DNA of 64,000 nucleotides, from assembly GCA_035288045.1 (NCBI GenBank), contig DATEBA010000012.1, forward strand, positions 15,979-79,978. The letters are read 5' to 3'. A program made the translations under genes and the position numbers. A model generated the notes under the pieces. The model did no database searches. It had not been told where the DNA came from and was given only the letters and a program-made list of their open reading frames with translations. Below, one piece after another: positions 37,853 through 54,773 of this stretch (position 1 is the first letter of the stretch; each line of letters starts with the position of its first letter). The DNA comes from Actinomycetota bacterium (lineage in GTDB: Bacteria; Actinomycetota; UBA4738; HRBIN12).

Positions 37853-38841
37853 GGGCTCCCGATGCTCCAGAGGGCGGGGTCGCCCCAGGCCCCGGTTATC
37901 ACGCGGTCCGGGTTCTCGCCCTTGTCCTCCGCGAAGCGGAGCGCGAGGAGCTGGAGGCGCGCGGTCAGGGGGATCTGCGCTAGGAGCGGGGGAAGATCGG
38001 CGGGCTCCACGACCGTGGTGACGCCGATGCCCTCGGCTTCGGCCGCGCGCGCGACGGCTGAGACGAACCCATCGGGGTCCGGTGGGGAGAGTGCGACCAT
38101 GTGATCCTCGGCCGTGAGAGGCACGGCAGACCCGTGCAACAGGTACTCGGCGTCGTAGCCCTCGCAGAGCGTCCGCGAGGCCTCGCGCAACTTGAGCGCA
38201 CCTTCCCGAGCGGTCACCGACGCCGGGCCCGCGCCGTAGAGGAGGAGTAGGCGGCGGGGTCGAGGGACCCGCTGGATGCCCGGGTCGGCGATCGCCGCGC
38301 GGACCGCCCCGGGCACCTTGGCGAGCGTGTCCGCCGCCGCCGTGTCGGAGCCCAGCGCCGCAGCGATACGGGCGAGGATGATCAACGCGCCGGAGTAGCT
38401 CACCGTGTAGGTTTCGGACTCCTCCTTGGGAACGGTCTCGATGGAGTCGGGCAGCTCGCCGTTCTGGCGGGTGATCGCCACCACCCTTATCCCGGCGTTC
38501 ACGGCTTGACGGAACCCCGCCGCCACGTACGCGGTCTCGGCGCCGGCGTTGTGGCTGATCAGTATCACTCCGTCCTGCGGGGTGACGAACGGAGGCCAGG
38601 TGACGAAATGCATGGAGGGGACGGCGACCGCGCCGCGTCCGGCCTCCTGAAGCATGGCGGCGCCGAGCTCCGCTGCGTGTTGGCTCGTGCCGGTTCCGAC
38701 GAGCCACAGCCGGCGGCATCGATGCAGCCGCTCGGCGGCCTCGTGGAGGCGGGGTTCGTCGTGGGTCAGGAGCCGTTCGAGCTGTTCGGGTTGGGAGTTG
38801 ATCGCCCGCTCAAGGGCGGTCGTCGCCCGCTGTTCCTGCAA
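37849..38841 (-). CDS. SIS-domain sugar-phosphate isomerase-like protein (double SIS)
   Basis: LWLVGTGTSQHAA SIS motif and a second SIS half. The start is taken as a TTG (plus-strand 38839-38841), 35 bp downstream of the lexA stop. The 567-aa track ORF running through lexA in another frame is an artefact. Confidence 0.6.
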   Translation of the reverse strand: MQEQRATTALERAINSQPEQLERLLTHDEPRLHEAAERLHRCRRLWLVGTGTSQHAAELGAAMLQEAGRGAVAVPSMHFVTWPPFVTPQDGVILISHNAGAETAYVAAGFRQAVNAGIRVVAITRQNGELPDSIETVPKEESETYTVSYSGALIILARIAAALGSDTAAADTLAKVPGAVRAAIADPGIQRVPRPRRLLLLYGAGPASVTAREGALKLREASRTLCEGYDAEYLLHGSAVPLTAEDHMVALSPPDPDGFVSAVARAAEAEGIGVTTVVEPADLPPLLAQIPLTARLQLLALRFAEDKGENPDRVITGAWGDPALWSIGSP

Positions 38842-38876
38842 GCCCCACCTCCCGGCGGATCCGGTTGCGACGGAGC

Positions 38877-39482
38877 TTAGAGCTTCCTCAGGACCGCCAC
38901 CACCTTGCCGACGATCCGCCCGTCGGGCATCTCGAGCGGCTCGAGCGACGGGTTCTCGGGGAGGAGAAGGACGCGCCCGTCCTCCCGGTGGAAACGCTTG
39001 ACGGTGGCCTCGTCCTCCGCCGGCCCGGGGAGGAGCGCGGCGACGATATCGCCTTCGCCTGCCGTGTCCTGGCGGCGCACCAGCACGAGGTCTCCGTCGA
39101 GGATCCCGGCGCCGACCATGGAATCGCCGACGACCCGGAGCGCGAAGTGGTCGGCGCCTTCTGCGAAGTCGGCCGGCACCGTCAGGTACTCCTCGATGTT
39201 CTCCTCGGCGAGGACAGGGGCGCCGGCGGCGATCCGGCCCACGAGCGGAACGACCGCGCCCTTGGCTCGGCGCCCGGCCAGCTCGATCGCGCGCGGCTTG
39301 GTGGGATCGCGGCGGAGGAGCCCCCTGCGCTCGAGGTTCGCGAGTTGGCTGTGAACGCTCGACGACGAGGTCAACCCGACGGCGTGACCGATCTCCCGGA
39401 CCGTCGGTGGATAACCCCGGTGCCGCACCGTCTTGGAGATGAACTCGAGGATGCGACGCTGCCTGGCTGTGAGATCGTCCAT
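38877..39482 (-). CDS. lexA: SOS repressor LexA
   Basis: wHTH N-domain and S24 peptidase C-domain with cleavage-site AAG and Ser/Lys dyad (GDSM...KRF). AGGAGG RBS before the ATG at 39482. Confidence 0.9.
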   Translation of the reverse strand: MDDLTARQRRILEFISKTVRHRGYPPTVREIGHAVGLTSSSSVHSQLANLERRGLLRRDPTKPRAIELAGRRAKGAVVPLVGRIAAGAPVLAEENIEEYLTVPADFAEGADHFALRVVGDSMVGAGILDGDLVLVRRQDTAGEGDIVAALLPGPAEDEATVKRFHREDGRVLLLPENPSLEPLEMPDGRIVGKVVAVLRKL

Positions 39483-39527
39483 GTGACCCCTCCTGGTGCC
39501 GGACCCTAGCACGGGCAGCGCCTGGAA

Positions 39528-39543
39528 TCAAACATACGTTCGG
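39528..39543. promoter_or_regulatory. LexA box 1 (one mismatch) in the lexA / LysM divergent region
   Basis: TCAAAC-ATAC-GTTCGG; an AAAC-N4-GTTC near-palindrome. Confidence 0.55.
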
Positions 39544-39551
39544 TCTTGACA

Positions 39552-39567
39552 TCGAACACCCGTTCGC
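39552..39567. promoter_or_regulatory. LexA box 2 in the lexA / LysM divergent region
   Basis: TCGAAC-ACCC-GTTCGC, a GAAC-N4-GTTC Cheo box, 9 bp from box 1. Confidence 0.75.
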
Positions 39568-39580
39568 TCACGATTGCAGC

Positions 39581-39862
39581 GTGGCTCGAACACGTGTGCG
39601 GTGGCGGCGCCTCTGCTCGGCTGTTCTGGGGATTGGGCTGCTGCTCTGGCTGGCGGGAGCCGTGACTGCCGATGACCGTTCCCAGGACCCGGACACGGTG
39701 TACACGGTTCGGGGCGGCGACACGGTGTGGGAGATCGCCTCGCGGGAGGTTGGCTCCGCAGGGGACCCTCGCCCCGTGGTCGATGCCATCGTCGGCTCGA
39801 ACGCGATCGATCCGGGCGCCCTTGCTCCGGGGAGCGAGCTGTGGATCTCAGCCGGCGGTTGA
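39581..39862 (+). CDS. Small secreted/membrane LysM-domain protein (Rv2719c-like position next to lexA)
   Basis: TM helix followed by a LysM signature (YTVRGGDTVWEIA). Confidence 0.65.
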   Translation: MARTRVRWRRLCSAVLGIGLLLWLAGAVTADDRSQDPDTVYTVRGGDTVWEIASREVGSAGDPRPVVDAIVGSNAIDPGALAPGSELWISAGG

Positions 39863-39896
39863 CGGCCCAGATGTTGCCCGGTACCGTCCAGCCGAA

Positions 39897-39911
39897 CCCC
39901 ATATCTTGTGG
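39897..39911. promoter_or_regulatory. NrdR-box-like near-palindrome upstream of nrdR
   Basis: CCCCATATCTTGTGG (CCA...TGG arms) shares the CCACA/ATCTTG words with the two sites upstream of nrdJ. Confidence 0.35.
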
Positions 39912-40399
39912 CGAGGTGCGCAGTGCGGTGCCCTTGGTGTCATCACGAAGAGGATCGAGTTGTCGATTCCCGGCCTGCGGAGAACGGGTCGGCCATCCGC
40001 CGGAGGCGAGAGTGCGTCTCCTGCGCTCGCCGGTACACAACCTTCGAGCGGATCGAGCAGGTGCTCCTCACGATCGTGAAGCGCGACGACTCCCGCGAGC
40101 CATACGAGCGGGAGAAGGTGCTGGCCGGCGTCCGCAAGGCTCTCAAGAACCGGCCGGTGAGCGAGGAGGACGTGGTGTCGCTCGCCGAGAGGGTTGAGGG
40201 GCGGCTCCGGCGGAAGGGCCCCGAGGTGGCGTCGCAGGACGTGGGGCTGGAGGTGCTGGCTCAGCTAGGGAAGCTGGACCAGGTCGCGTACATGCGGTTC
40301 GCTAGCGTCTACAAGGACTTCCAGGAGATAACCGACTTCGAGCGAGAGCTCGGGCTCCTGCTGCAGAAGCGGGAGCCGGCCAAGCGCCGGAGCCGCTGA
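39908..40399 (+). CDS. nrdR: Transcriptional repressor NrdR (zinc ribbon + ATP-cone)
   Basis: RCPWCHHEEDRVVDSR...RRRRECVSCARRYTTFE zinc ribbon. The GTG at 39923 gives the canonical MRCPWC N-terminus and is probably the true start. Confidence 0.85.
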   Translation: MARCAVRCPWCHHEEDRVVDSRPAENGSAIRRRRECVSCARRYTTFERIEQVLLTIVKRDDSREPYEREKVLAGVRKALKNRPVSEEDVVSLAERVEGRLRRKGPEVASQDVGLEVLAQLGKLDQVAYMRFASVYKDFQEITDFERELGLLLQKREPAKRRSR

Positions 40400-40430
40400 C
40401 CGGCCTCGGTCCACGGGCCGGTGAGATACT

Positions 40431-40468
40431 AGATGTTGTGGTCGACAAAGATTCTCGCCACATCATCT
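40431..40468. promoter_or_regulatory. 11-bp inverted repeat (AGATGTTGTGG-N16-CCACATCATCT): candidate NrdR operator pair upstream of nrdJ
   Basis: The two half-sites lie 27 bp centre to centre, about 95 bp upstream of the nrdJ ATG. Confidence 0.45.
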
Positions 40469-40561
40469 TGACGAACGGCCCCGGTGGAGGCAGAATCACG
40501 GGCGCGTGATTACAGGCCTGTAAGAGCCTTCCCCAAGGGCGCGATACAAGGGGGACCGAGA

Positions 40562-43270
40562 ATGAACCAGGGGGACGTCCAGGTCATCCGCGAGGGTCTG
40601 ACCTTCAAGCGGTACTTCACGAACGAGGGCGTCCATCCCTTCGACGAGGTCGAATGGGAAAGGCGGGACGCGGTCATCCCGAACTACAAGGAGGGCGGGA
40701 ACGCCTTCGAGCAGCCCGACGTGGAGTTCCCGGCCAGCTGGTCGCAGAACGCCACCAACATAGTCGCGCAGAAGTACTTCAGGGGCACCCTCGGAACACC
40801 GGAGCGCGAGTCGAGCGTCCGCCAGCTGATCTCACGGGTGGTCGACACGATCCGCGGATGGGGCGTGAAGGACGCCTACTTCGAGACCGAGCACGACGCG
40901 CAGGTCTTCGGCGACGAGCTCACGCATCTGCTCGTCACCCAGAAGGCGTCGTTCAACTCCCCTGTGTGGTTCAACCTCGGGGTCCCCAACGTGCCGGTGC
41001 AGGCTTCCGCGTGCTTCATCCTGGCCGTCGACGACACGATGAGCTCGATCCTGAACTGGTACGTCGAGGAGGGAACGATCTTCAAGGGCGGCTCCGGGTC
41101 GGGGATCAACCTTTCGGGGCTCCGCTCGAGCAAGGAGCCCCTGGGTGGTGGCGGAACCGCTTCGGGTCCCGTGTCTTTCATGCGCGGCGCCGACGCGAGC
41201 GCCGGGACGATCAAGTCGGGGGGAAAGACCCGCCGCGCCGCGAAGATGGTCGTGCTGAACGCCGATCATCCGGACGTTCGCGACTTCATATGGTGCAAGG
41301 CCGTCGAGGAGCGAAAGGCGAGGGCCCTGCAGGCCGCCGGGTTCGACATGGATCTCGACGGGAAGGACTCACATTCGGTCCAGTACCAGAACGCGAACAA
41401 CTCCGTCCGCGTGACCGACGAGTTCATGCAGGCCTACCTCGAGGACCGCGACTGGAAGTTGAAGGCCGTCACGACGGGCGAGACGATCGAGCCGATCCGC
41501 GCGCGAGACCTCATGCGGGACATCACGCTCGCGGCGTGGGAATGCGCCGATCCGGGGATGCAGTACGACACCACAACAAACGAATGGCACACGTGCCCGG
41601 CGTCGGGTCGCATCAACGCCAGTAACCCCTGTTCGGAGTACGTTCACCTGGACAACTCAGCATGCAACCTGGCCTCGCTCAACCTGCTCAAGTTCCTGGA
41701 CGAGGAGAGCGCCTTCGACGTCGCGAGCTTCAGGCACGCCGTCGAGGTCGTGTTCACGGCCCAGGAGATCATCGTCGGCAACTCGGATTACCCCACTGAC
41801 AAGATCGCGCGGAACGCCAAGGCTTTCCGGCAGCTCGGTCTGGGCTACGCGAACCTGGGTGCGCTTCTCATGGCTCGAGGACTGCCGTACGACTCCGACG
41901 GCGGGCGTGCCTGGGCGGGTGCGATCACGTCGCTCATGACCGGCCAGGCGTACCGCGCGAGCGCGCGCATAGCCGAGGTCACGGGGCCCTTCGCCGGGTT
42001 CCCGCCGAACCGCGACGCGATGCTTCGCGTCATGCGCAAGCACCGAGCGGCGGCCGACGACATCGACCCCGACCACGTGCCCGAAGGCCTCCTCTCCGCG
42101 GCGAGGAGCGCCTGGGACGAGGCGATCTCGCTCGGCGAGCTGCACGGCTACCGCAACGCGCAGGTGAGCGTGCTCGCTCCCACCGGCACGATCGGCCTGA
42201 TGATGGACTGCGACACCACCGGCATCGAGCCGGACCTGGCCCTGGTCAAGAACAAGAAGCTCGTCGGCGGCGGCACGATGCGAATCGTGAACCAGACGGT
42301 GGCGCGCGCACTCCGGCGCCTCGGGTACTCCGAAGAGCAGGCAGATGACATCGTCGCCTACATCGCGGAGCACAACTCGGTCGTGGGGGCGCCCCACCTG
42401 CGCGAGGAGCACTATCCCGTGTTCGACACCTCGATGGGCGAGCGGGCCATCCACTACATGGGACACGTCCGAATGATGGCGGCCGTCCAGCCGAGCATCA
42501 GCGGGGCAATCAGCAAGACCGTGAACATGCCCGAGCAGGCGACGGTCGAGGAGGTGGAGCAGCTGTTCGTGGAGTCGTGGCGGCTGGGACTGAAGGCCGT
42601 CGCCATCTACCGCGACAACTGCAAGGTCGCTCAACCGCTCTCCGCCGACAAGAAGGCCAGGGCCGAGGAGCCGGCTCCGGTCGCCCAACCGGTTCGCAGG
42701 CGCCTGCCTCAGTCCCGGCCTTCGCGGACGATCTCGTTCGCGGTCGGGGAGGCTGAGGGTTACATCACGGCGGGCGAGTACCCCGACGACGGGATCGGGG
42801 AGATCTTCCTCAAGGTCTCCAAGCAGGGGTCCACGCTTTCCGGCGTGATGGACGCGTTCGCGATCGCGGTGTCCCTCGGGCTCCAGTACGGGGTGCCCCT
42901 GGAGGCGTTCGCGTCGAAGTTCATCAACATGAAGTTCGAGCCGTCGGGGATCACGAACGACCCCGATGTACGACTAGCGAGCTCGCTGGTGGACTACGTG
43001 TTCCGGCGGCTGGCGATTGACTACCTGGCGCCGGAGAAGAGGGAGTCGCTCGGGGTCCGAAGCATCGAGGAGCGCAAGGCGCTGATCGCGAACGGCAACG
43101 GTGGGGAGGTCGCTGCAGCGGTCGCAGAACCGGAGACGGCCGAAGCGCCCGAGAAGCAGAGCGCGCAGGCAGCCGATGCCCCGCTCTGCTACTCGTGTGG
43201 CTCCAAGATGCAGCCGGCGGGCTCGTGCTACGTCTGCCCGTCCTGCGGCTCGACGAGCGGCTGTTCGTGA
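40562..43270 (+). CDS. nrdJ: Adenosylcobalamin-dependent (class II) ribonucleoside-diphosphate reductase
   Basis: Class II RNR motifs (active-site NPCSEY, C-terminal CxxC...CxxC zinc ribbon) and about 900 aa. The ATG at 40562 follows an AAGGGGGA RBS; the upstream 40484 extension is rejected. Confidence 0.9.
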   Translation: MNQGDVQVIREGLTFKRYFTNEGVHPFDEVEWERRDAVIPNYKEGGNAFEQPDVEFPASWSQNATNIVAQKYFRGTLGTPERESSVRQLISRVVDTIRGWGVKDAYFETEHDAQVFGDELTHLLVTQKASFNSPVWFNLGVPNVPVQASACFILAVDDTMSSILNWYVEEGTIFKGGSGSGINLSGLRSSKEPLGGGGTASGPVSFMRGADASAGTIKSGGKTRRAAKMVVLNADHPDVRDFIWCKAVEERKARALQAAGFDMDLDGKDSHSVQYQNANNSVRVTDEFMQAYLEDRDWKLKAVTTGETIEPIRARDLMRDITLAAWECADPGMQYDTTTNEWHTCPASGRINASNPCSEYVHLDNSACNLASLNLLKFLDEESAFDVASFRHAVEVVFTAQEIIVGNSDYPTDKIARNAKAFRQLGLGYANLGALLMARGLPYDSDGGRAWAGAITSLMTGQAYRASARIAEVTGPFAGFPPNRDAMLRVMRKHRAAADDIDPDHVPEGLLSAARSAWDEAISLGELHGYRNAQVSVLAPTGTIGLMMDCDTTGIEPDLALVKNKKLVGGGTMRIVNQTVARALRRLGYSEEQADDIVAYIAEHNSVVGAPHLREEHYPVFDTSMGERAIHYMGHVRMMAAVQPSISGAISKTVNMPEQATVEEVEQLFVESWRLGLKAVAIYRDNCKVAQPLSADKKARAEEPAPVAQPVRRRLPQSRPSRTISFAVGEAEGYITAGEYPDDGIGEIFLKVSKQGSTLSGVMDAFAIAVSLGLQYGVPLEAFASKFINMKFEPSGITNDPDVRLASSLVDYVFRRLAIDYLAPEKRESLGVRSIEERKALIANGNGGEVAAAVAEPETAEAPEKQSAQAADAPLCYSCGSKMQPAGSCYVCPSCGSTSGCS

Positions 43271-43280
43271 TCCCTGATCT

Positions 43281-43309
43281 AGGAGGGCGGGGCTCGAACC
43301 CGCCCTCCT
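43281..43309 (+). terminator. Intrinsic-terminator-like hairpin after nrdJ
   Basis: Perfect 11-bp stem AGGAGGGCGGG / CCCGCCCTCCT with a 7-nt loop, 10 bp after the stop. No T-tract, which is common at high GC. Confidence 0.6.
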
Positions 43310-43322
43310 CGGAAGGCCCGCC

Positions 43323-43664
43323 GTGGCGCTTGACTACTGGCTGATCGAGCGCGAGAGCGCGACGGTGGGCATCCCCGTGGGAGGAGAGGAGCGGGCGACG
43401 CGGTTCTACGGGGAGGTTCTCGGGATGGAGCCGCTCCCAGGAGAGGGATTCCGCTCACAGGGGCTACAGCTGCGACTCGATATCGAGGTACCGTTCCGCC
43501 CCGTGGAGCAGCTCGCCGCGATGGTGGTATCCGACTTAGAGGCGTTGCTGGCTCGGCTCGCCGAGCACGGCGTCAGGGCCGATGGGGAGCAGCTCGAGTT
43601 CTTCCAGCGCGTGGTGGTTCACGACCCGTTCGGCAACGGGCTCGAGCTGATCGCTGAGCGGTGA
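43323..43664 (+). CDS. VOC/glyoxalase-bleomycin-resistance family protein
   Basis: Size (113 aa) and beta-alpha-beta-beta-beta signature with C-terminal [10 protein letters not shown]. Confidence 0.55.
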
Positions 43665-44095
43665 CCGAGCTCCCGTTCCGGCGGATCGATCCCGGTGTCC
43701 CGCTTCCGTCGCGGGCGCATCCTGGGGACGCCGGGCTCGACCTGCACTCGGCCGTCGACCTCGAGCTCGGTCCTGGGGACCGCACGCTTGTGCCGACGGG
43801 ACTCGCGGTCGCGATCCCGGAGGGGTTCGCGGGGCTCGTGCTTCCCCGCTCGGGGCTGGCCTCGAGACAGGGGATCACGATGGCCAACTCGCCGGGTCTG
43901 ATCGATGCCGGCTACCGGGGCGAGGTGATCTGTGCGGTCGTTAACCTGGATCGCGAGCAACCCGTGCGGATCCGGCGCGGGGACCGCATCGCGCAGCTCG
44001 TGATCGTGCCGGCGCCGACGCTCGAGCCGGTGACCGTAGATGAGCTGCCCGCCTCGTCCCGTGGGGAGGATGGGTTCGGCTCGACGGGTCCCTAG
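43661..44095 (+). CDS. dut: dUTP diphosphatase
   Basis: The five dUTPase motifs are present, including AGxDL, RSG and GxIDxGYRG. Confidence 0.9.
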
Positions 44096-44155
44096 CCTCG
44101 GTTGAAGGAGCTTCGGGGACAACCTAGACTCGATGAGGCGCCTTCCGGCGCGCAG

Positions 44156-44228
44156 GCGGACGTGGCTCAGCTGGTAGAGCACCACCTTGCCAAGGTGGGG
44201 GTCGCGGGTTCGAATCCCGTCGTCCGCT
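44156..44228 (+). tRNA. tRNA-Gly (anticodon GCC)
   Basis: Cloverleaf traced by hand: acceptor GCGGACG/CGTCCGC and anticodon loop TTGCCAA. CCA is not encoded. Confidence 0.85.
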
Positions 44229-44276
44229 CGGATCCGGCCCGTGGAAGGGATGCAAACCCGGGCCGCGTGTTCGCTC

Positions 44277-44347
44277 GGCGGGGTGGCCGAGTGGTTAGGC
44301 AGGGGTCTGCAAAACCCCGTACACCGGTTCAATTCCGGTCCCCGCCT
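44277..44347 (+). tRNA. tRNA-Cys (anticodon GCA)
   Basis: Acceptor GGCGGGG/CCCCGCC and anticodon loop CTGCAAA. Confidence 0.8.
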
Positions 44348-44369
44348 CTCGTGTAGCATTGCCCCACCC

Positions 44370-44441
44370 GGGCGGTTAGCTCAGGGGGAGAGCGCTTCCT
44401 TGACGCGGAAGAGGCCAGAGGTTCAAATCCTCTACCGCCCA
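44370..44441 (+). tRNA. tRNA-Val (anticodon GAC)
   Basis: Acceptor GGGCGGT/ACCGCCC and anticodon stem-loop CTTCC-TTGACGC-GGAAG. The Gly-Cys-Val order is typical of actinobacteria. Confidence 0.85.
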
Positions 44442-46194
44442 CGATCTGAAACCCCTGGTAGAGGCTAGGTTGCCGAGGTCATCAAGAGACGTCCTCCTGG
44501 ATCAAGAGGACGCACTAGCGGAGGCGGGGTTCAGGTACGTGGGTCTCCAGCCAGTTCTTGGCGTAAGGGTGGTCTCTCTTGTGAAGCCTCTCCGCGTGGA
44601 AGAAGATCCGGATGCCTTCTGGTCACGACGTCCTCAAGCTTGCGACTACTGCGCCCCTGCGGTACGTGAAGGCGTAGAGCAGCGGCACATGCAACTCAAT
44701 CGAGCAGGATGCCCTCGGCAATCCAAGGGTAGGATCCTCGGCATGCGGATCCGAAGAGCGCTAGCTGTGAGCTCCACAGCATCGATCCTCTTGTTGATGC
44801 TTGCTCCTGTTTCCAGCGTGAGTGGAACGGTTGCTCAGTGTTTCGGGGAACCGGCGACAATCGTCGGCACCCCTGAAGCTGACCGCATCCGAGGGACCGA
44901 TCACGCAGACGTGATCGTCGGTCTTGGGGGTCGGGACGTGATCGTCGGGCGGAAGGGGCTTGACCTCATCTGTGGGAACGATGGACCGGACCGATTGGAT
45001 GCCGGGCGGGCCGGCGACAAGCTCTCGGGAGGCCTCGGCAGCGACGACATCTACGACGGGCGAGGCGACGACATTTCACTCGCGGGCCCAGGGCGGGATC
45101 AGCTGACGAGCATCGTGCAGGCGAGCCCCTGCGACGTGTTTTGCCGCACCTACGACCGATGGAACGACCGGGTGGCCGGTGGCCCGGGGACGGACCGCCT
45201 CTTCATAGATGGGGGCTACGCCAACCTCTCGACGGGTGTCTATGTCACAGATGCCTCCAACGATCGCATCGCGGGCATTGAAGACGTCAGTGGTGGGTTT
45301 CTGAACGAGACGATCATCGGAAACGCTCGTGACAACATGCTGGACGCATACCTTGGCGAGGAAGACATCGTTCGGGGACGAGCGGGTGATGACATCATCG
45401 GCATCTCGGGCAGCGATTTCGAGCAGTCCGAGAACGGCCGCATGTACGGTGGCCCGGGAGACGACTGGCTCGACTTTGAGCATGACGCTCAGGTTGATCT
45501 ACGTGAAGGAACCGCGAGTTCCTCCGGGGGAGAACTTGTGCTTGCGGGTTTTGAGAACGTGCGAGCCAGCGCCAACTCCCTCCTCGCTGGCGACTCGGGA
45601 CCGAACACGCTCATTGGCGAGTTCGGTGTGGACACGCTGATCGGGCGAGCTGGGCGAGATGTCTTGATCAGTCACCTCCGGGATGACTCTCTTGATGGTG
45701 GAAGAGGAACCGATCGCCTTAATGGAGGCAAAGGGACGGATTCGTGTCACCACGGCGAAGTGGTCTCAAATTGTGAGTGAGAGGCCAGGAGGCAGGCCGG
45801 GCTAGCAGCTCTGGAGGCAGCTCGACACCCTGAAGGACGAGATGGAGGAGGGCGACCAGTTCGGGTCGTCCCTCGCCTAGCGCCTCGGGAGCAGGAGGGG
45901 CCGCCAGGCTCCGTTCGCGCCTGGACTTCGTCGCGAGGTCACGGGATCCGGGGAGGGTGCACCGAGCTGGTTTCGCCGTCCGAGCGCTGGGCGCTTTCCG
46001 GCCCCGATTCTTCCCTCCGGTAAGGGGCGGGCAGACGGCCGGTGCCGTACGCCTCGGACACCTGGGAACAGACAGAGCGGTCAACTCCTGGTCAAGGAGC
46101 CGACCGAATCTGACGGTACTCGACGTCACTGGTGTGACGATCGAGACGGGCGTTGAGCAGCAGCGGTGCTGGTCAAGGCATTGCCCTTGACTCT
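44442..46194 (+). mobile_element. Putative degraded integrated islet C at tRNA-Val(GAC), bounded by the first tRNA 3'-half repeat
   Basis: It lies between the intact tRNA 3' end and direct repeat 46195..46237, has a lower-GC leader (44442..44742) and carries a single secreted RTX-like cargo gene. No integrase is present. Confidence 0.45.
44743..45780 (+). CDS. Secreted RTX-like calcium-binding repeat protein; paralog family member 2
   Basis: ATG 44743 with RBS. Signal peptide, CFGEPATIVGT block, G-x-D-x-[IL]-x-G repeats and a C-terminal Cys pair. Colinear with 13025..14098. Confidence 0.7.
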   Translation: MRIRRALAVSSTASILLLMLAPVSSVSGTVAQCFGEPATIVGTPEADRIRGTDHADVIVGLGGRDVIVGRKGLDLICGNDGPDRLDAGRAGDKLSGGLGSDDIYDGRGDDISLAGPGRDQLTSIVQASPCDVFCRTYDRWNDRVAGGPGTDRLFIDGGYANLSTGVYVTDASNDRIAGIEDVSGGFLNETIIGNARDNMLDAYLGEEDIVRGRAGDDIIGISGSDFEQSENGRMYGGPGDDWLDFEHDAQVDLREGTASSSGGELVLAGFENVRASANSLLAGDSGPNTLIGEFGVDTLIGRAGRDVLISHLRDDSLDGGRGTDRLNGGKGTDSCHHGEVVSNCE

Positions 46195-46237
46195 TTGACG
46201 CGGAAGAGGCCAGAGGTTCAAATCCTTTACCGCCCAC
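46087..46237 (+). repeat. att-like repeat 1 of tRNA-Val(GAC): ~105-bp element arm plus 43-bp copy of the tRNA 3' half (46195..46237)
   Basis: TTGACGCGGAAGAGGCCAGAGGTTCAAATCCTTTACCGCCCAC matches the tRNA from the anticodon loop to the 3' end with 1 mismatch. The preceding arm is about 75% identical to the 47821..47930 arm. Confidence 0.8.
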
Positions 46238-47930
46238 CAAGGCCGACGGCGCAATCCCGGATCGCTCAGGACGCCAGATACCGGGCCAGGGCGAACCTCC
46301 GGCCACTACCCTCTTCGCGCGATCCTGCCGCGACGATCCTGCCGTCGGCCTGGATGGCGAGAGCGAAAGCCGTGGCGAACCCACCTCCGAACCTGGTGGT
46401 TACCTTCCCGTCCGACCCAAACGTGTCATCGAGGATCCCGTCAGTCGCGTACCGAGCTAGGGCGAACCGGCCCTCCGTATCGTTCGAAACTTCACCCGAC
46501 GCCACGATCCTGCCGTCGGTCTGGATGGACACCGCGTGAAGGCCGGCATCGCCTGTGGCAAAACGGGTCAGGACTTCGCCGTCCCCTCCAAATGTCTCGT
46601 CGAGGCTGCCATTCCTCCTGTGGCGGAAGAGGGCGAAACCCGCTCCTCCACTCGACCCCCCCACAACGACCTTGCCGTTGGGCTGGATTGCGAGTGCGGA
46701 AGCGCCGCCGTCGGGGTTCAGGACCTTCCCGTCACCCCCGAAGGTGGCATCCAGCGTCCCATCGACGTTGTACCGAGCAAGGGCAAGAGCCGAGCCCGGA
46801 AAGGTGAAGAGGCCCCCCGCCACGACGATCCTGCCGTCAGACTGGACAGCCAAGGCGTCCGCTAGGGCCTCCCCGCGAAATCTCGTCCTCACCTTCCCGT
46901 CGCCCCCGAACGTAGCGTCCCGCGTGCCATCGGTGTTGTACCGGGCGAGGGCGAATCCGGCTCCCTCGAGGGCGAAGGAGACTCCGGCGGCCACGATCCT
47001 GCCGTCGGATTGGATGGATACCGCCGAGGCGGAGGCACCGCCGGCGGCGAGTCTGGTCCGAACTCGTCCGTCACCGCCGAACGTGGCGTCGAGGGTACCG
47101 TTGGTCTTGTACCGGGCGAGGGCGAAGCCGCCCGAGAATTCACCCGCTGCAACGATCTTGCCGTCGGTCTGGATGGCGACTGCGGAAGCGGTGCCGCCGG
47201 GGGTCAGGACCTTCCCGTCGCCCCCGAAGGTGGCATCCAGCGTGCCGTCGGTGTTGTACCGGGCCAGAGCGAATGCCTCGCCTACACGCGATCCCTCGGC
47301 TCGACCCGCCGCAACGATCTTGCCGTCGGCTTGGATGGCGACCCCTGAGGCTAGTGCGGAGACTGTCCGCCGAGGCCAGGTCAAGACCTTCCCATTGCCT
47401 CCGAAGCTCGTATCGAGGTCGCCCGCCGCTGCTGCCGCCGAGGGAGCATTGATCGACAACATGAAGATGAGCGTCGCACTTGCCGCGAGGATCCGAGCCT
47501 GCATCGTGTCAATCTCTCTCTCGAAGTTGCGTCATTAGACCTTCGCCTTCGACACCGGGTCAAGGGTCGGTCCGAGCTGGAGCTCGCGGGAAACTTTGCG
47601 GGAGTGGGAGTAGGAGCCCGCTTCGCCTCTCGCGAACTGGTGGCCGAGTGAATCCGGTGGCTACCGTGGCGAGCTCCACATCAGCCAAGCGATCTACCGT
47701 CGTCCGGTGCCACGGCTGCCTCTGCGAGCCGCTGTCTTCTTCGGCCGCCCCTGCGGTTGATCATTGCGGACCGGCCTGGCCTTGAGGGTGGCCAGTTTCC
47801 TGCTCTTGATTCTGGTCAACCTCTGGTCAAGGAGCCGACGGAATCAGACGGTACTCATCAGTACTCGTGTGGCGAGCGAGAATGCCCGCGAGCAGCAGAA
47901 GTCCTGGTCATGACGCTGTGCGGCACCTCC
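46238..47930 (+). mobile_element. Putative degraded integrated islet D (second tandem unit at tRNA-Val(GAC))
   Basis: Bounded by repeats 1 and 2; single cargo gene (delta-60 repeat protein). Confidence 0.45.
46266..47504 (-). CDS. Secreted delta-60-repeat protein (GxLDxxFGGDGKV...QxDGKIV repeats)
   Basis: Signal peptide followed by about eight ~50-aa repeats with the consensus G-T-L-D-A-T-F-G-G-D-G-K-V ... A-x-Q-x-D-G-K/R-I-V-A-A-G ... ALARY. Confidence 0.7.
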   Translation of the reverse strand: MQARILAASATLIFMLSINAPSAAAAAGDLDTSFGGNGKVLTWPRRTVSALASGVAIQADGKIVAAGRAEGSRVGEAFALARYNTDGTLDATFGGDGKVLTPGGTASAVAIQTDGKIVAAGEFSGGFALARYKTNGTLDATFGGDGRVRTRLAAGGASASAVSIQSDGRIVAAGVSFALEGAGFALARYNTDGTRDATFGGDGKVRTRFRGEALADALAVQSDGRIVVAGGLFTFPGSALALARYNVDGTLDATFGGDGKVLNPDGGASALAIQPNGKVVVGGSSGGAGFALFRHRRNGSLDETFGGDGEVLTRFATGDAGLHAVSIQTDGRIVASGEVSNDTEGRFALARYATDGILDDTFGSDGKVTTRFGGGFATAFALAIQADGRIVAAGSREEGSGRRFALARYLAS

Positions 47931-47973
47931 TTGACGCGGAAGAGGTCGAAGGTTCAAATCCTTCACCGCCCAC
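47821..47973 (+). repeat. att-like repeat 2 of tRNA-Val(GAC): arm plus diverged copy of the tRNA 3' half (47931..47973)
   Basis: TTGACGCGGAAGAGGTCGAAGGTTCAAATCCTTCACCGCCCAC has 5 mismatches to the tRNA. The arm TCTGGTCAAGGAGCCGACGGAATCAGACGGTACTC... parallels 46087... Confidence 0.7.
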
Positions 47974-48460
47974 CAGCGAAGTCCCGCCGGTGTGAGTTGA
48001 CGACTCATCGACGCCGTCACCGGATGGACGCTCTTCGAGCAGCGGGAGACTGACTCCGTAGAACCAAGTGTCGCACTTCCTCCTGTCAGTGAGGGAGACA
48101 GTTGCCCAACATGGCGGGCCGATTTCGGACCGCGAATTTGATCCCCGCAGCCCTCGCTCCGGCCCTTCGGCCTCAAACTCACCCACGGCACCGCCCGCTC
48201 ACCCCCACCCGTAGGGAGTCGGTCGGAGTCCTCGCCCCGAGCGCCGTCCTGGGGTTACCTCCCAAGAGAAGTGTTTGCCCAGGTAGATGGCGTCTGGGGC
48301 AACCCCGACCAATGCTCCCCAGACCCTGCCGCCGGACCTAACCCCCCGGAGAGGAAATCCGTCATTAGGCGGATGCATCGTTAGTCCGTTTGCACTAGGA
48401 TTCAGGCACCACCCGGCGTAGCCGGGGTGGAGGAGCGTGACCTGCCTGAGGAGGGGGTCG

Positions 48461-49909: not shown

Positions 49910-49984
49910 GGGCGCGTAGCTCAGCGGGAGAGCGCTTGCTTCACACGCAAGAGGTCGCAGGTTCAAAACCTGCCGCGCCCACCA
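49910..49984 (+). tRNA. tRNA-Val (anticodon CAC), CCA encoded
   Basis: Acceptor GGGCGCG/CGCGCCC, anticodon arm CTTGC-TTCACAC-GCAAG and T-arm GCAGG-TTCAAAA-CCTGC. Confidence 0.85.
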
Positions 49985-49994
49985 GACAGGATCG

Positions 49995-50280
49995 GAGGCT
50001 CACAAGGGATTGGCGAAGAGCTCCCGGCCGTGGGTCCCATCGTTGGCGGCGAAGAAGAGGGTCCCAGCGACGTTCGCAAGGGACTTCGGGTGCGAGCCCC
50101 CAGATTCCGGGTAGATGTCGTTGACCTGGACTGTGCCGGCCTCGGTTCCGTCGCTCTTCCAAAGCTCGTAGCCGTCCGTGCCGTCGTCGGCAGCGAAGAA
50201 CAGGGTCCTCCCGACGTTGGTGAGGAACCTTGGGTACGACCTCGCCGATCCGGTTTCTGTCCCGTGTATTCCGGCGATTC
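49995..50280 (-). pseudogene. Remnant of an ELWxxDG-repeat protein gene (no start, truncated)
   Basis: The DNA is alignable, at roughly 75% identity, to the repeat-coding part of 51852..53045 (compare 50150..50230 with 52650..52740). No complete ORF. Confidence 0.5.
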
Positions 50281-50490
50281 ATGGAGCGTGCGCCCGAGTA
50301 CAGCTTCGAGCCCCACGCATACCTCGCGGACGACGAGCATGGAGTGGAGCTCCAGAAATCCCACTACAGGCGGGGCGACCAGACGCTGGACACAAACGAC
50401 ACGTTCGTCTGCCACTTCCGAGACGGCAAGGTCACAGAGACGTGGCTGTCGACAGACGATCCGTACGGCGTGGACGAATTCCTCGGCTAG
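50281..50490 (+). pseudogene. C-terminal fragment of a SnoaL/NTF2-like protein
   Basis: ...TFVCHFRDGKVTETWLSTDDPYGV resembles the C-terminal strands of SnoaL-like polyketide cyclase/NTF2 folds. Only about 70 codons, with no N-terminal half. Confidence 0.35.
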
Positions 50491-50511
50491 CCGCGGGACC
50501 ATCGAGTTGCT

Positions 50512-51843
50512 CTACTCTCCGCGGGCGCTGTGCTCGACGATCGACGCGAGATCGACCCTGGCCAGGTAGGAGTCGAAGCTACCGGCGTTCGACTCGCCCG
50601 CGAAGGTGCCCGAGGTGTCGCCGATCACGAACAGATCGCCGGCCGCGCCCCATCCCCAGCCCACCGTTTCCTCTTCGTCGGTTCCGAATTCGAGTGTCCA
50701 TTGAGCGTCGCCCGTCGTCGGCTCGAACGCCCGGGCGAAGACGTCGTCACCGCCGAGGTTCGTTTGGCCATGGAAGGCGCCACCTGTGGTCCCCACGGTC
50801 ACCACGTCGCCCCGCACCAGCGTCGCGCCCGCGGACGCATCGACGGCCCTCGTGCCGAACTGCCTGGTCCAAAGCCCGACGCCTGCCGGCGAGAATCCGC
50901 GGATGAAGGCGTCGGACCTACCCCTTCTCTCGAACCCGCGGAAGGATCCCCAGGTCTGGCCCGACACGTACACGCCGCTCGCATCGGCCGCCAGCCCCGA
51001 CCCGATGTCGGCCCTGTTGGTACCGAACTGGCGCAGCCACAATCTCCTCCCGTCTCGAGAGAACAGGGCGAGGAACGCGTCCAAGTCGCCGTGAGAGCGC
51101 GCCCCGGGAAGGTGACCGTCGGTGAAGCCGTTCACGTAGATGCCCTGTGGGGCGATCATCGCCGCCCACGCTTCCTCATACCCCCGCCCGCCGAACTGCC
51201 GCAGCCACTCCATCGCTCCCCGCTTGTCGAAGCGGGCGAGGAACAAGTCGGCGCTGCCATGGTTCACACGGTTCGCGAACGCGCCGAAGGTGTACCCGAA
51301 CACGAAGACGCCCGACCGGTCCACCACGATGCCCGCCGCGTAGTCGTCCTCGTCCGTTCCGAACTGCGCCATCCACCGCTCGTTCCCCTCGAGGTCGTAC
51401 CTCGCGACGAACGCATCGGCTCCCCCCGCGCTGGTCTGACCGGGTAACGAACCCGTCGTGGCACCGTCCACGTAGAGGCCAGACGCGTCCGCGCGCGCGG
51501 CGCCGACCTCCTCCCACCTCCTCGTGCCGAACTGCACGGTCCAGACCTCCGAGCCCCGCGCGTCGGTGCGCCTGATCCATCCGTCCGCGTCCCCCTCGCT
51601 GGCCTGCCCCGGGAGGGCGCCGTAGGTCAGACCCCCCGTGAAGACGTCCCCCCCGAAGGAGTCGACCGCGTAGGTGCCGAGCTCCGGAGCCGGAGAGCCG
51701 AACTGATCGACCCAGGCCACGGACCAGGTGATCGCCGCGCTCGGGGGCCCGAGGAGACCAACGAGAACCGCTAGCAACGCAGCGAGCGGGAACGCCGGGC
51801 CGCCCCAGCGACCGGGCGCTCCCGCGGCTCGAGACAGCGTCAT
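50512..51843 (-). CDS. Secreted beta-propeller repeat protein (SBBP-like repeats: W..QFGT...D.A.GV..D.SGVYV.G.T.G...G)
   Basis: Start at 51843 (MTLSRAAG... signal/TM), then about eight ~48-aa repeats. Confidence 0.65.
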   Translation of the reverse strand: MTLSRAAGAPGRWGGPAFPLAALLAVLVGLLGPPSAAITWSVAWVDQFGSPAPELGTYAVDSFGGDVFTGGLTYGALPGQASEGDADGWIRRTDARGSEVWTVQFGTRRWEEVGAARADASGLYVDGATTGSLPGQTSAGGADAFVARYDLEGNERWMAQFGTDEDDYAAGIVVDRSGVFVFGYTFGAFANRVNHGSADLFLARFDKRGAMEWLRQFGGRGYEEAWAAMIAPQGIYVNGFTDGHLPGARSHGDLDAFLALFSRDGRRLWLRQFGTNRADIGSGLAADASGVYVSGQTWGSFRGFERRGRSDAFIRGFSPAGVGLWTRQFGTRAVDASAGATLVRGDVVTVGTTGGAFHGQTNLGGDDVFARAFEPTTGDAQWTLEFGTDEEETVGWGWGAAGDLFVIGDTSGTFAGESNAGSFDSYLARVDLASIVEHSARGE

Positions 51844-51851
51844 CGACCTGG

Positions 51852-53045
51852 TCACGGAATGGTCACGAAGTCGTCCAGGAACGACCGCGCGATCGCGATG
51901 TCGTTCCTCCACGCCCAGGATATGCCGTGGCACTGTCCGGTCTCACCGTCGCCTACGGCGACCGCGACGTTGGAGTTCCCGAGGAAGTAGGGCGCGCCCG
52001 CATCTCCGCTGCAGACGCCCCCCTGTCCGGTCGCGGTCGAGTTGATCTGCAGCTCGATGGTGCCCGGGTCGATCGCCGCGATCTGGGCCGTCGCCCACCG
52101 CCGCGCTCCGTCGAACCAGTAATCGCACGGCCCAGAGCCCGAGCAGTCGGCCTCGACGCCGTAGCCGACCACCGTGAGCGACTGGCTCTTCTTCACCGAC
52201 TCCAGCTGGTCGAGCGTAGGCAGCCGGGCCGGAGTGATGCCTCGAACGGGCCTGGCGAGGATCGCAACCCCGTAGAGGTTGAAGCCGTTGGTGAAGTTCA
52301 CCTCCGGGTGCAAGTACCCGGCCTCGACGGTTCGGAGGGTCGACGTCTCTGGATCGAGCACCGGGTCGAACGAGACCACCGCCCGACCGCCGATCGACTG
52401 GGCGTATTCCACGCCGCCCGGGCACTCCGGAACCGTGAGGAACGCGGTCGAGGAGATCAACACACCCGAACAGAAGGCGAAGACCTCACCGTCCGGATCC
52501 TCCAGCACCATCACCCCGACGTTCGGGTCGCTCTTCCACAACTCGCGGCCAGTGATGCCGTCGTCTGTGGCGCGGAAGAACAGGGTCCCTCCAACGTTGA
52601 TGAGCGTGCCCGGGTACGAGCCCCCCAATCCTGGGACGATGTCCTTCACTTGCACTGTCCCGGCCTCGGTCCCGTCGCTCTTCCACAGCTCGGGGCCGCT
52701 GATGCCGTCGTTGGCGCGCAAGAACAGGGTTCCCCCGACGCTGGTGAGGAGCCTTGGGCGGAACCACGGACCCGACATGGCCGATCGGGGGTTGATGTCC
52801 TTCACCAGGGCCGTACCGGTTTCTGTCCCGTCGCTCTTCCACAGCTCGGGGCCGCTGACGCCGTCGTTGGCGCGCAAGAACAGGGTCCCTCCGACGTTGG
52901 TGAGGCTGCCGAGGTGCGAGGTCGTCGATCCGGGGTTGATGTCGCGGACCAGGTAAGGACTCCCGGCGGCGCTTGCAGAGGGCGCGGCAGGAAGCGATGC
53001 CACGAGACAGACGAGGATCAGCGCCGCCTTTCGTACGGTTCGCAT
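51852..53045 (-). CDS. Secreted protein: three ELWKSDGT-type repeats + trypsin-like (S1) domain with all three catalytic residues substituted
   Basis: Start at 53045 (MRTVRKAALILVCLVASLPAAPSASA) with AGGAG RBS. Repeats GTLFLRANDG(V/I)SGPELWKSDGTE x3. The S1 fold landmarks CSGVLIS...LTVPEC (His->Glu), GVAILARP (Asp->Gly) and CSGDAGAP (Ser->Ala) are all altered. Confidence 0.6.
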   Translation of the reverse strand: MRTVRKAALILVCLVASLPAAPSASAAGSPYLVRDINPGSTTSHLGSLTNVGGTLFLRANDGVSGPELWKSDGTETGTALVKDINPRSAMSGPWFRPRLLTSVGGTLFLRANDGISGPELWKSDGTEAGTVQVKDIVPGLGGSYPGTLINVGGTLFFRATDDGITGRELWKSDPNVGVMVLEDPDGEVFAFCSGVLISSTAFLTVPECPGGVEYAQSIGGRAVVSFDPVLDPETSTLRTVEAGYLHPEVNFTNGFNLYGVAILARPVRGITPARLPTLDQLESVKKSQSLTVVGYGVEADCSGSGPCDYWFDGARRWATAQIAAIDPGTIELQINSTATGQGGVCSGDAGAPYFLGNSNVAVAVGDGETGQCHGISWAWRNDIAIARSFLDDFVTIP

Positions 53046-53184
53046 CGCTCGGCTCCTCGTTGGCCACCGGCAGGGGGAAGATTTCGACAAGCGAGACTCT
53101 ACTGATGTCGGAGGAAGCAGCGCAAGGCTCTGGCTGATTCGCCGATAGATACCTTGGGTTCGCGTCCTCTGTCCCCCCTGACGC

Positions 53185-53238
53185 GATAACCTTCTCGATT
53201 CGCTCGCCTCTGACGTGCATAATGTCCAAGGCGCACAG
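53185..53238 (+). repeat. Left part of the att arm of the tRNA-Val(CAC) islets, interrupted by IS30
   Basis: GATAACCTTCTCGATTCGCTCGCCTCTGACGTGCATAATGTCCAAGGCGCACAG parallels 58794..58846; the last 24 bp are identical. Confidence 0.75.
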
Positions 53239-54693
53239 ACCAGGTTCAACGGGTCCTCGCAACACCGGCTGGCTGGACTGAGAGTAGGTGATCGTTCAAA
53301 GCTTCGGCGGGCGTGCGCCAGTCGAGAGTCTTGCGCGGCCGAGTGTTCAGCGCCAGGGCGACGGCTTCGAGATCATCGGCGTTGTGTTTGCTCAGGTCGG
53401 TTCCTTTGGGGAAGTACTGGCGCAGCAGTCCGTTGGTGTTCTCGTTCGTGCCGCGCTGCCAGGGGCTGTGCGGGTCACAGAAATAAACCGCGAGACCGGA
53501 GCCGATCCGCAGTTCGGCGTGTTTGGCCATCTCCTTGCCTCGGTCCCAGGTGAGGGAGCGCCGAAGCTGTGCGGGGAGTGTCGTGATCGTGGACGCGATA
53601 GCGTCGCGGACGGCCTCGGCCCCGTACCCGGCGAGCGCCGGCCCGTTCTTGACTCGTGGCTCGGTGCCGTAGCCCTCCAGGCGGGGTAGGTGCAGCAACA
53701 TTGTGAACCGGGTGGTTCGCTCGACCAGCGTCCCGATCGCGGATCGGTTCAGCCCGATGATCAGGTCCCCTTCCCAGTGCCCGGGCACCGCACGATCCGC
53801 GACCTCGGCTGGGCGGGCGCTGATCATGACTTCGGGTGTGATGAAGCCGTCGCGGCGCTGTCGGGAACGAGCTCGAGGCACGCGCAGTGCTCGACCGGTG
53901 CGCAGACACGAGACCAGCTCCCGGCGCAGCGCCCCGCGGCCCTGCACGTAGAGCGCCTGGTAGATCGCCTCGTGTGAGATCCGCATGGACCCATCATGAG
54001 GGTGCTCGACACGCAGCCGGTTCGAGATCTGCTCCGGGCTCCAGGACTTGGCCCAGCGCCGGTCTTGGCGGCGACCGTGCCGACGACCGATCCAGCGCAC
54101 CTCGGGTCCGGGCACGAGCTCACCGTCGGGTCGGGTTATCGAACCGGCGAGGCGGTCCTGCACGTACTCGCGCAGCTGCTCGTTCGCGGCGAGCTTGGAG
54201 ACCTTCGGGCGGCTGGCTCGCCGCTCTGCGTGCCACTGCGCCGTCGACGCCCGGTACTCCAAGCGGTACGTGCGAGTCGAGGCGTTGCGGCGGAGCTCCC
54301 GCGAGATCGTTGACGGCGACCGACCCAACCGTCGGGCGATCGCGCGCACCCCGACGAGCTGGGCGTGCAGGAGCGCGATCTCCTCGCGTTCAGCAAAGGA
54401 CAGGTAGCGACCAGACAAGTGGACTCAGCGAGATGGGTGGCATCCCGCCAGCGTGACGGAACCACCTCGCCCCGACCGCCAGCGACACGCCGGCCTCGCC
54501 GGCGGCGTCCTCACTGGATGCGCCACGCGCTATCGCCTCCCAGAACGGCACTCGGTCTTCGCGCCGAGCCGTCGAAGGCCGCCCCGGGGACCACATCTGA
54601 CCGCGCATCGCACGGATCGCCTGCTGACGCTCGCGAACACCCATCGCGCACCACCTCCGTCTCGAGGTGTTGCGACGACCACTTGATTCCGCC
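53239..54693 (-). mobile_element. IS30-family insertion sequence, apparently intact (1455 bp)
   Basis: 28-bp imperfect terminal inverted repeats (ACCAGGTTCAACGGGTCCTCGCAACACC vs reverse complement of the right end; 19/28 matches, the inner 10 identical). Flanked by a 3-bp CAG direct repeat (53236-38 and 54694-96). The uninterrupted target sequence is visible at 58823..58860. Confidence 0.75.
53246..54418 (-). CDS. IS30-family DDE transposase
   Basis: N-terminal HTH (LSFAEREEIALLHAQLVGVRAIARRLGRSPSTISRELRRN) and a DDE domain (HWEGDLI, DRGKE, NENTNGLLRQYFPKGTDL), 390 aa. Confidence 0.9.
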   Translation of the reverse strand: MSGRYLSFAEREEIALLHAQLVGVRAIARRLGRSPSTISRELRRNASTRTYRLEYRASTAQWHAERRASRPKVSKLAANEQLREYVQDRLAGSITRPDGELVPGPEVRWIGRRHGRRQDRRWAKSWSPEQISNRLRVEHPHDGSMRISHEAIYQALYVQGRGALRRELVSCLRTGRALRVPRARSRQRRDGFITPEVMISARPAEVADRAVPGHWEGDLIIGLNRSAIGTLVERTTRFTMLLHLPRLEGYGTEPRVKNGPALAGYGAEAVRDAIASTITTLPAQLRRSLTWDRGKEMAKHAELRIGSGLAVYFCDPHSPWQRGTNENTNGLLRQYFPKGTDLSKHNADDLEAVALALNTRPRKTLDWRTPAEALNDHLLSVQPAGVARTR

Positions 54694-54757
54694 CAGCGCA
54701 TAGACCCGGGTGCTTCACACGCAAGAGGTCGCAGGTTCAAAACCTGCCGCGCCCACA
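54694..54757 (+). repeat. Right part of att arm plus direct repeat 1 of the tRNA-Val(CAC) 3' half (54712..54757)
   Basis: CGCATAGACCCGGGT + GCTTCACACGCAAGAGGTCGCAGGTTCAAAACCTGCCGCGCCCACA is identical to tRNA positions 49938..49981. Confidence 0.85.
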
Positions 54758-54773
54758 AGGGTCGCGAACGAGC

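Follow-up and report, generated by a model that had tools for sequence, protein, structure and literature searches.

Reportedly, as set out by Williams in 2002, one class of genomic islands and prophages enters the 3′ part of a tRNA gene by means of a tyrosine recombinase that crosses over within the anticodon loop. Cis-mobilizable elements (CIMEs) are flanked by attachment (att) sites, carry no integration genes of their own, occur in tandem at a single site and are mobilisable when a related integrase acts in trans. The ssrA-targeted islands of Dehalococcoides carry their own recombinase. These islands are site-specific at a small stable-RNA gene (PMC3146451). Tandem accretion and CIMEs beside integrative and conjugative elements (ICEs) of streptococci are treated in two reviews (PMC5704250, PMC7563491). 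The tycheposons of Prochlorococcus are described with a deep-branching tyrosine recombinase of their own, hallmark genes of replication and packaging, and islands in which newcomers push older elements deeper and remnants and partial tRNAs lie scattered (10.1101/2020.12.28.424599). Tandem integration at tRNA genes is already known, as are cis-mobilizable elements and, from tycheposons, remnants bounded by partial tRNAs. Here we describe two small islets in tandem behind a tRNA-Val(GAC) gene of the uncultured Actinomycetota bacterium GCA_035288045.1. All coordinates refer to the window, that is, the whole stretch of 64,000 nt analysed (contig DATEBA010000012.1, forward-strand positions 15,979 to 79,978).

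Direct repeats of the tRNA 3′ part bound both islets, and the proximal repeat lies within the intact tRNA gene. Each islet is about 1.75 kb long, contains one gene and ends on its right side in a conserved sequence of about 115 bp (the arm), which stands directly before a displaced tRNA part (the core). It is well supported, and in our judgement highly probable, that the two islets arose by integration. The whole statement, that they are cargo-only integrative islets accreted by a candidate trans-acting tyrosine recombinase, is held as somewhat probable. The features of the array are listed below; the nhmmer profile used for the arms was made from nine arms of other genomes and the window's own two.

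44370..44442, + strand: functional tRNA-Val(GAC), head of the array and attL-type junction (ARAGORN; Rfam tRNA, 68.3 bits)
44454..44464, + strand: CCTGGTAGAGG, a variant of the GC(A/T)GGTCAGAGG motif, at the left end of islet 1 (sequence reading)
44743..45780, + strand: cargo gene of islet 1, a 345-aa protein with RTX calcium-binding nonapeptide repeats (HemolysinCabind, Pfam PF00353, E=7.3e-21)
46078..46192, + strand: arm of unit 1, right end of islet 1 (nhmmer E=1.3e-27; repeat family D9; family alignment A3)
46193..46240, + strand: displaced tRNA-Val(GAC) 3′ part, copy 1, anticodon stem through CCA (repeat families D5/D6)
46266..47504, − strand: cargo gene of islet 2, a 412-aa DUF5122 beta-propeller with seven repeats (Pfam PF17164, E=4.1e-61, 7 stretches; internal repeats D2/D3)
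47812..47927, + strand: arm of unit 2, right end of islet 2, with the motif order of unit 1 (nhmmer E=6.3e-28; D9; A3)
47928..47976, + strand: displaced tRNA-Val(GAC) 3′ part, copy 2, ending in CCA (D5/D6)

The block common to tRNA-Val(GAC) and both downstream copies begins at about 44396 (repeat search and alignment), and the similarity opens in the 5′ strand of the anticodon stem. The 43-nt 3′ part of the tRNA (44400-44442) differs from 46195-46237 by one mismatch and from 47931-47973 by five, as found by sequence reading and by an independent repeat search. Both displaced copies end in an encoded CCA; the live tRNA-Val(GAC) ends in CGA. Of the five changes in the distal copy, four affect the T-stem without disrupting its pairing (AGAGG/CCTCT to GAAGG/CCTTC), which fits a former working 3′ half of a tRNA. 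Under a model of successive insertion, copy 2 would be the oldest. The sequence-only reading that preceded this analysis had reported the two copies with the same mismatch counts, a similar sequence before each of them, and one secreted repeat-protein gene per unit without a recombinase, all of which could be reproduced. The arms are 78% identical without gaps (46079-46175 versus 47814-47910; repeat family D9, alignment), and their similarity is significant by the nhmmer values given above. Pfam assigned both cargo proteins and detected no recombinase among the two islet genes; that the proteins are secreted is a by-eye judgement of the translations, in which both N-termini look signal-peptide-like. 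The islets also differ in composition from their surroundings, with a GC content of 0.59-0.66, and of 0.59-0.64 around the cargo gene of islet 1, compared with 0.69-0.71 in the flanks and upstream, and the GC content at third codon positions of the islet genes is lower than that of core genes.

The unit 1 arm contains GGTCAAC-N3-TGGTCAAGGAGCCGAC-N-GAATC, followed by GACGGTACTCGACGTCAC and, after that, by an imperfect hairpin ending in GCTGGTCAAGG. A 34-nt arm pattern gave two matches in the window (0.00 expected from shuffles), and blastn, as a separate line of evidence, matched both window arms with arms of other genomes. In alignment A3, which comprises 36 distinct units of arm plus core, columns 3-33 are nearly invariant (TGGTCAAC-N3-TGGTCAAGGAGCCGAC-N-GAAYC). 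These columns, at the distal end of the arm, include two TGGTCAA repeats 11 bp apart, which are followed by a pair of CGGTACTC-like repeats with a spacing of 10 bp, a variable section of about 20 nt and the imperfect hairpin CTGACCTGC-GAAAGT-GCTGGTCAG. A third TGGTCA-like site is located about 20 nt from the core, and the anticodon stem lies about 17 nt beyond the hairpin. The distal 60 nt of the arm are nearly invariant across metagenome-assembled genomes (MAGs); the cassettes that end in it otherwise have no common sequence.

Pair counts gave 77% pairing for the leader hairpin, which shows little covariation, and 61% for the pseudo-acceptor stem of the ARAGORN-style fold; the tRNA-derived T-stem is 97% paired with strong covariation. 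Since the arm is conserved in sequence and not in fold, we read it as a protein-binding platform, not as RNA, with putative arm-type sites for an integrase and sites for a directionality factor. The layout is as expected for a lambda-like tyrosine recombinase; the kind of recombinase and the roles of the motifs, like the order of insertion and the supply in trans, are inferred. The CCTGGTAGAGG sequence at 44454-44464 is possibly a binding site on the P′ side. At other loci, the GC(A/T)GGTCAGAGG motif recurs about 10 nt past many cores, genuine tRNAs included; a P′-side role is uncertain because the motif also resembles a tRNA D-loop.

Two other readings of the arm were rejected. As a structured RNA it found no support, since RNAalifold folded only the T-arm and a weak 5′ stem and neither pair counts nor Rfam were supportive. 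As a gene start or end it was dismissed because the reverse-strand translations beside nine arms contain no conserved open reading frame (ORF); a conserved small ORF such as an excisionase gene was also absent within 600 bp upstream of the arms.

We regard it as very improbable that the units, instead of being recombination scars, are tRNA-like small RNA genes, leader-bearing pseudo-tRNAs or locally duplicated copies of the tRNA gene region. ARAGORN does place a 92-nt "tRNA-???" call at 46148-46239 and labels many arm-plus-core units elsewhere as full tRNA-Val genes (L034, L033, L040, L064 and others), the GCTGGTCAGAGC sequence of the arm is D-loop-like, and the only Rfam family assigned to units is tRNA, with borderline 29-34 bits for those of L034 (77 bits for the genuine tRNA gene of this locus). 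However, the window units remain below every Rfam threshold, a functional tRNA or tRNA-like RNA is hardly compatible with the poorly paired pseudo-acceptor and leader, and no promoter-like site was found in 44300-48300. Moreover, genuine tRNAs are preceded by DNA that does not resemble the arm, and the inserts between the units are foreign and differ among relatives. The ARAGORN miscalls of such units as tRNA-Val would inflate tRNA gene counts in MAG annotation.

With the favoured reading of the array as integrated islets, the repeats behind tRNA-Val(GAC) would be attR-type junctions from two successive site-specific integrations into this gene. Each incoming circle would have carried an attP-like site composed of the ~115-bp arm and a ~50-bp tRNA copy that reaches from the anticodon stem to the 3′ end. 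Crossover in or beside the anticodon loop would then rebuild the tRNA from the copy of the element and displace the previous 3′ part, now behind the arm of the element, to the far end of the insert. When another element later entered at the live tRNA, the first islet would have been moved outward. Because the islets carry cargo only, the recombinase would have to act in trans, supplied from elsewhere in the genome or by a helper element.

The array thus resembles tRNA-gene islands of tyrosine recombinases in a direct repeat that spans the tRNA from its anticodon stem to its 3′ end, in a tRNA regenerated at the proximal junction, in its foreign composition and in a complex direct-repeat arm beside the distal repeat. 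Unlike such islands, neither the islets nor 25 related cassettes (see below) carry an integrase or excisionase gene, and the GAC islets measure only about 1.75 kb with one gene each. With the ssrA islands of Dehalococcoides (PMC3146451), the array has in common that cargo modules are mobilised at the 3′ end of a small stable-RNA gene; the target gene and the lineage are different.

The genes in front of the array are dut, the class II ribonucleotide reductase (RNR) gene and lexA, and the occupancy of the site was compared among strains and relatives. The following of these features were located in the window:

40484-43270: class II RNR gene, upstream of the array (Pfam)
43661-44095: dut (dUTPase), upstream of the tRNA cluster (Pfam)
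44156-44229, 44277-44348 and 44370-44442: tRNA-Gly(GCC), tRNA-Cys(GCA) and tRNA-Val(GAC), one cluster (ARAGORN, Rfam)

About 20 independent same-species contigs, which come from different ENA and JGI samples (dUTPase 99-100% identical), are collinear with the array structure and contain both GAC islets, so that the structure is not an assembly artefact. The next relatives sampled (L081-83, L085, L086 and L087; dUTPase 77-80% identical) keep the upstream genes and the Gly-Cys-Val(GAC) cluster but have unrelated genes behind the tRNA, with neither islets nor arm. Because different DNA follows the retained tRNA in these relatives, the flanks are not conserved intergenic sequence, and occupancy of the site varies as in other tRNA-integrating elements. 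The class II RNR of L081-83 and L087 contains a LAGLIDADG intein, which is absent from the window copy (40484-43270).

The arm is not confined to this species. The pattern CTGGTCAAGGAGCCGACNGAATC was found at 9 loci in 7 uncultured actinobacterial MAGs, a slightly looser pattern in 55 metagenome contigs or loci, and the nhmmer profile detected about 80 arm copies in 64 loci of actinobacterial MAGs and metagenomes. All carriers are uncultured soil and sediment Actinomycetota. Within every locus the arms are co-oriented, and arrays reach four units in 8 kb (L004) or three units (L034 and L027), with two in several other loci. Genuine tRNA-Val genes stand at the head of some arrays (GAC in L009 and L060; TAC in L033, L034 and L059), and the units behind them have the matching anticodon loop. 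In all five alignable loci (L009, L033, L034, L060 and L045, the last from the same species as the window at 99.6% identity), the identity between tRNA and unit opens in the 5′ strand of the anticodon stem and extends to the 3′ end of the tRNA or just past it. Tyrosine integrases whose crossover lies in the anticodon loop leave attR-type junctions of this geometry, and the attR-type reading of the repeats relies on what is established about such integrases. In many other genomes the arm is likewise joined to tRNA 3′ parts and found behind genuine tRNA-Val genes. The proposed preference for tRNA-Val agrees with the genuine heads; it is not specific for GAC, since the cores behind TGGTCAA arms are of the Val-GAC, Val-TAC, Val-CAC and Ile-GAT-like types.

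Several loci show further peculiarities. Behind the tRNA-Val(TAC) of L033 (oriented ~970-1030), four tandem copies of CCCACCGGATC were found, which consist of the tRNA 3′ terminus and flank. In L032 (oriented 3562-7302), Val-type units are enclosed between tRNA-Ala(TGC) on one side and the incomplete 3′ end of a tRNA-Ala on the other, which suggests a composite island moved by a different integrase. L004 (oriented 1676-6267) includes Ile(GAT)-like and Val-like cores behind one arm family and a 360-bp "empty" unit, an arrangement that is not accounted for by repeated insertion into one and the same tRNA. A breakpoint in the anticodon loop between L001 and L004 was considered as proof of the crossover and dropped, because comparison with L003 suggests a possible deletion.

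Twenty-five cassettes are bounded on both sides. They are 0.23-6.7 kb long (median 1.9 kb), with mixed gene orientation, and encode Ser/Thr kinases fused to propellers, TolB-like proteins, methyltransferases, GNATs and cupins, as well as ECF sigma factors, two-component proteins and IS481-like transposases. One 1.5-kb cassette is common to two different MAGs at 97% identity with different neighbours; the breakpoints of cassette sharing are often off the core boundaries. In a literature search, no description of the arm family, of cargo-only cassettes or of such arrays was found. Apparently undescribed are the arm family itself, its occurrence so far only in uncultured Actinomycetota, the array sizes and the consistent restriction of the cassettes to cargo. 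What appears to be new is that every sampled unit is tiny and cargo-only, with a conserved complex att arm and no recombinase nearby.

Recombinases were searched for by motifs, one family-specific hidden Markov model (HMM), tblastn and Pfam. Motif screens for tyrosine (box I/box II) and serine recombinases over about 385 kb around the arms revealed no signature, a XerD-like HMM did not match any six-frame ORF of the arm loci, and tblastn with an integrase remnant of the window (see below) retrieved no recombinase from these loci. Among the top 25 Pfam families listed for 110 ORFs, none is a recombinase. Accordingly, none of the 25 complete cassettes (0/25) contains a recombinase or even a remnant of one, and none was seen upstream of the array heads (L009, L033, L034, L059, L081-87 and the window). 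The motif and HMM screens of the window and the 64 loci thus gave no tyrosine integrase belonging to the islets themselves. The arm was absent from IMG/VR viral contigs (0 matches with three patterns) and had no blastn match in PLSDB plasmids or INPHARED phages. The sole integrase sequence from all screens is the remnant, situated within 54687-55363 in a second array of the window. The sequence-only reading had suggested a search of the genome for an integrase next to an arm copy. A decayed one lies beside a core of this second array, and none was found with any GAC-type arm.

The streptococcal CIMEs are similar to the islets, as both are att-flanked units without integration genes that lie in tandem at one site. 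Unlike in CIMEs, no integrase-bearing partner is present in the array, up to four or more very small units occur together, and the hosts are uncultured Actinomycetota. With regard to mobilisation in trans, the att-like sites are conserved and an integrase-less island of the neighbouring second array is polymorphic; a partner integrase and polymorphism of the GAC array itself were not found.

This second array starts at tRNA-Val(CAC) and comprises the following features:

49910-49984: tRNA-Val(CAC), head of the second array
49985-54710: proximal CAC island, with a SnoaL-like ORF, an SBBP propeller, a trypsin-like protein and an IS30-family insertion sequence (IS); no integrase
~53246-54686: IS30-family IS, HTH_38 and rve transposase, 21-bp inverted repeats
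54711-54759 and 58861-58909: 49-bp repeats of the tRNA-Val(CAC) 3′ part
54760-58860: distal CAC island, closed by the third tRNA-Val(CAC) 3′ copy at 58861-58909
54773-55222, + strand: XerD-like tyrosine integrase remnant, frameshifted and truncated (Pfam PF00589, E=1.4e-7)

The CAC repeats are accompanied by an arm of their own. The CAC-type arm (GTGCATAATGTCCAAGGCGCACAG/CGCATAGACCCGG plus at least about 60 bp) before 58861 matches the arm before 54711, which is split by the IS. It is unrelated to the TGGTCAA arm, and the latter is absent from the CAC repeats even when the IS is removed in silico. The sequence-only reading had proposed two related but distinct integrating families for the two arrays. 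That the CAC array uses a different arm, and hence that the families are distinct, is borne out by the unrelated arms; for a relationship between them no support was established. The small SnoaL-like ORF at the left edge of the CAC island (50230-50490) has 76% DNA identity to cargo of TGGTCAA arrays in other metagenomes (L034 5571-5798 and L069 1854-2081), so that cargo is common to both att families. The IS30-family transposase was considered as the recombinase of the island and rejected, since it belongs to an ordinary IS that interrupts the CAC-type arm at a distance of 24 bp from the repeat, with a probable 3-bp CAG target duplication.

The CAC array is polymorphic within the species. In the same-species JGI contig L089, the island 49985-54710 is precisely absent; the sides are 99.8-99.9% identical and a single 49-bp repeat is kept. 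In L015 (ENA ERZ27254793), the last 155 bp show tRNA-Val(CAC) with a single-nucleotide polymorphism in the T-loop, followed by entirely different DNA, which represents a third allele. Both cases indicate that islands without an integrase are gained or lost exactly at the repeats within one species. Together with the absence of integrases from all 25 cassettes, their small size and the near-invariance of the distal arm, this polymorphic integrase-less island next door is why we favour mobilisation in trans.

The distal CAC island documents another fate of such elements. Its XerD-like remnant opens 13 bp past the repeat 54711-54759, and homologues with about 50% identity adjoin tRNA-Thr (L088), tRNA-Arg (L091) and tRNA-Pro (L090). 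Integrases of such elements decay in place in this genome, a path by which once autonomous elements could have lost their integrase end by deletion, so that the arrays would be graveyards in which nothing is mobilised in trans. This possibility is taken seriously, though we consider it rather unlikely. It draws support from the decaying integrase, from the truncated cores or partial arms of many units elsewhere and from the fixation of the GAC islets in all same-species contigs, and the tandem integrations, degenerate remnants and scattered partial tRNAs of Prochlorococcus tycheposons (10.1101/2020.12.28.424599) show a comparable outcome. On the other hand, none of the complete cassettes retains even a trace of a recombinase, and graveyards account poorly for cassettes of uniformly small size, for a distal arm that is kept nearly invariant among cassettes sharing nothing else, and for the intraspecific polymorphism of an integrase-less island at the adjacent tRNA. 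The similarity to tycheposons extends to newer arrivals that displace older ones and to remnants and partial tRNAs; the differences are the lack of recombinase or hallmark genes in islets and cassettes, the other phylum and the conserved 115-bp arm.

Several observations weigh against accretion of the islets by a recombinase acting in trans. No cognate integrase was encountered in the window, the 64 loci, viral contigs, plasmids or phages, which leaves the central actor of this reading hypothetical; a very divergent recombinase could have escaped the screens. Neither an empty site nor an alternative allele of the GAC array was seen among the ~20 same-species contigs. The loss in L089 could stem from homologous recombination between the 49-bp repeats. 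The truncated cores and partial arms in several units elsewhere are as expected of decaying remnants. Finally, the TGGTCAGAG motif of the arm is similar to a tRNA D-loop and is found next to genuine tRNAs as well, so that its role as an arm site is not secure.

The co-oriented arrays of small one- or two-gene cassettes with one conserved site each are reminiscent of integrons. In an integron-like platform, the tRNA would be a fixed acceptor, arm plus core would form the cassette sites and a dedicated recombinase would move single cassettes. The 1.5-kb cassette present in two MAGs among different neighbours and the combination of Val-type and Ile-like cores in the single array of L004 are in agreement with such a platform, and as in integron arrays the recombinase gene would lie outside the cassettes. 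We nevertheless consider it quite unlikely. Neither intI nor attI is located beside the array, no recombinase accompanies any of the heads inspected, gene orientation within the cassettes is mixed, and cassette-sharing breakpoints often miss the core boundaries. The sites consist of primary sequence plus a tRNA fragment and, in contrast to folded attC sites, are kept in sequence, with weak covariation in the hairpin.

A broader proposal, which we offer as tentative and doubtful in its full extent, is a tRNA-anchored cassette system of uncultured Actinomycetota, in which integrase-less cassettes of one or two genes are captured, stacked and exchanged by a putative arm-binding tyrosine recombinase in trans. 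Its composite site of about 170 bp may consist of three or four TGGTCA sites, two CGGTACTC sites and the tRNA 3′ part, and its targets may be tRNA-Val (and Ile-like) genes. Such a system would be a functional analogue of integrons that uses lambda-type att chemistry and delivers accessory genes, among them those for secreted repeat proteins and kinases. If an integrase services the cassettes in trans, tRNA-Val genes would be gene-capture platforms across a large group of uncultured Actinomycetota from soil and sediment, which would account for differences between strains in their secreted and surface proteins. With the arm consensus, a probe is at hand for further arrays and for the missing recombinase.

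The contig L013 was compared with the window over 33676-47045 (96.3% identity). Only 11 of the 428 mismatches fall within 40484-47045 (99.4-100% identity), so that the divergence lies upstream of 40.4 kb; this pattern reflects either a recent recombination tract or a chimeric assembly. The tRNA cluster and the islets (44156-47045) are 100% identical and the genes from RNR to dut 99.4-99.8%.

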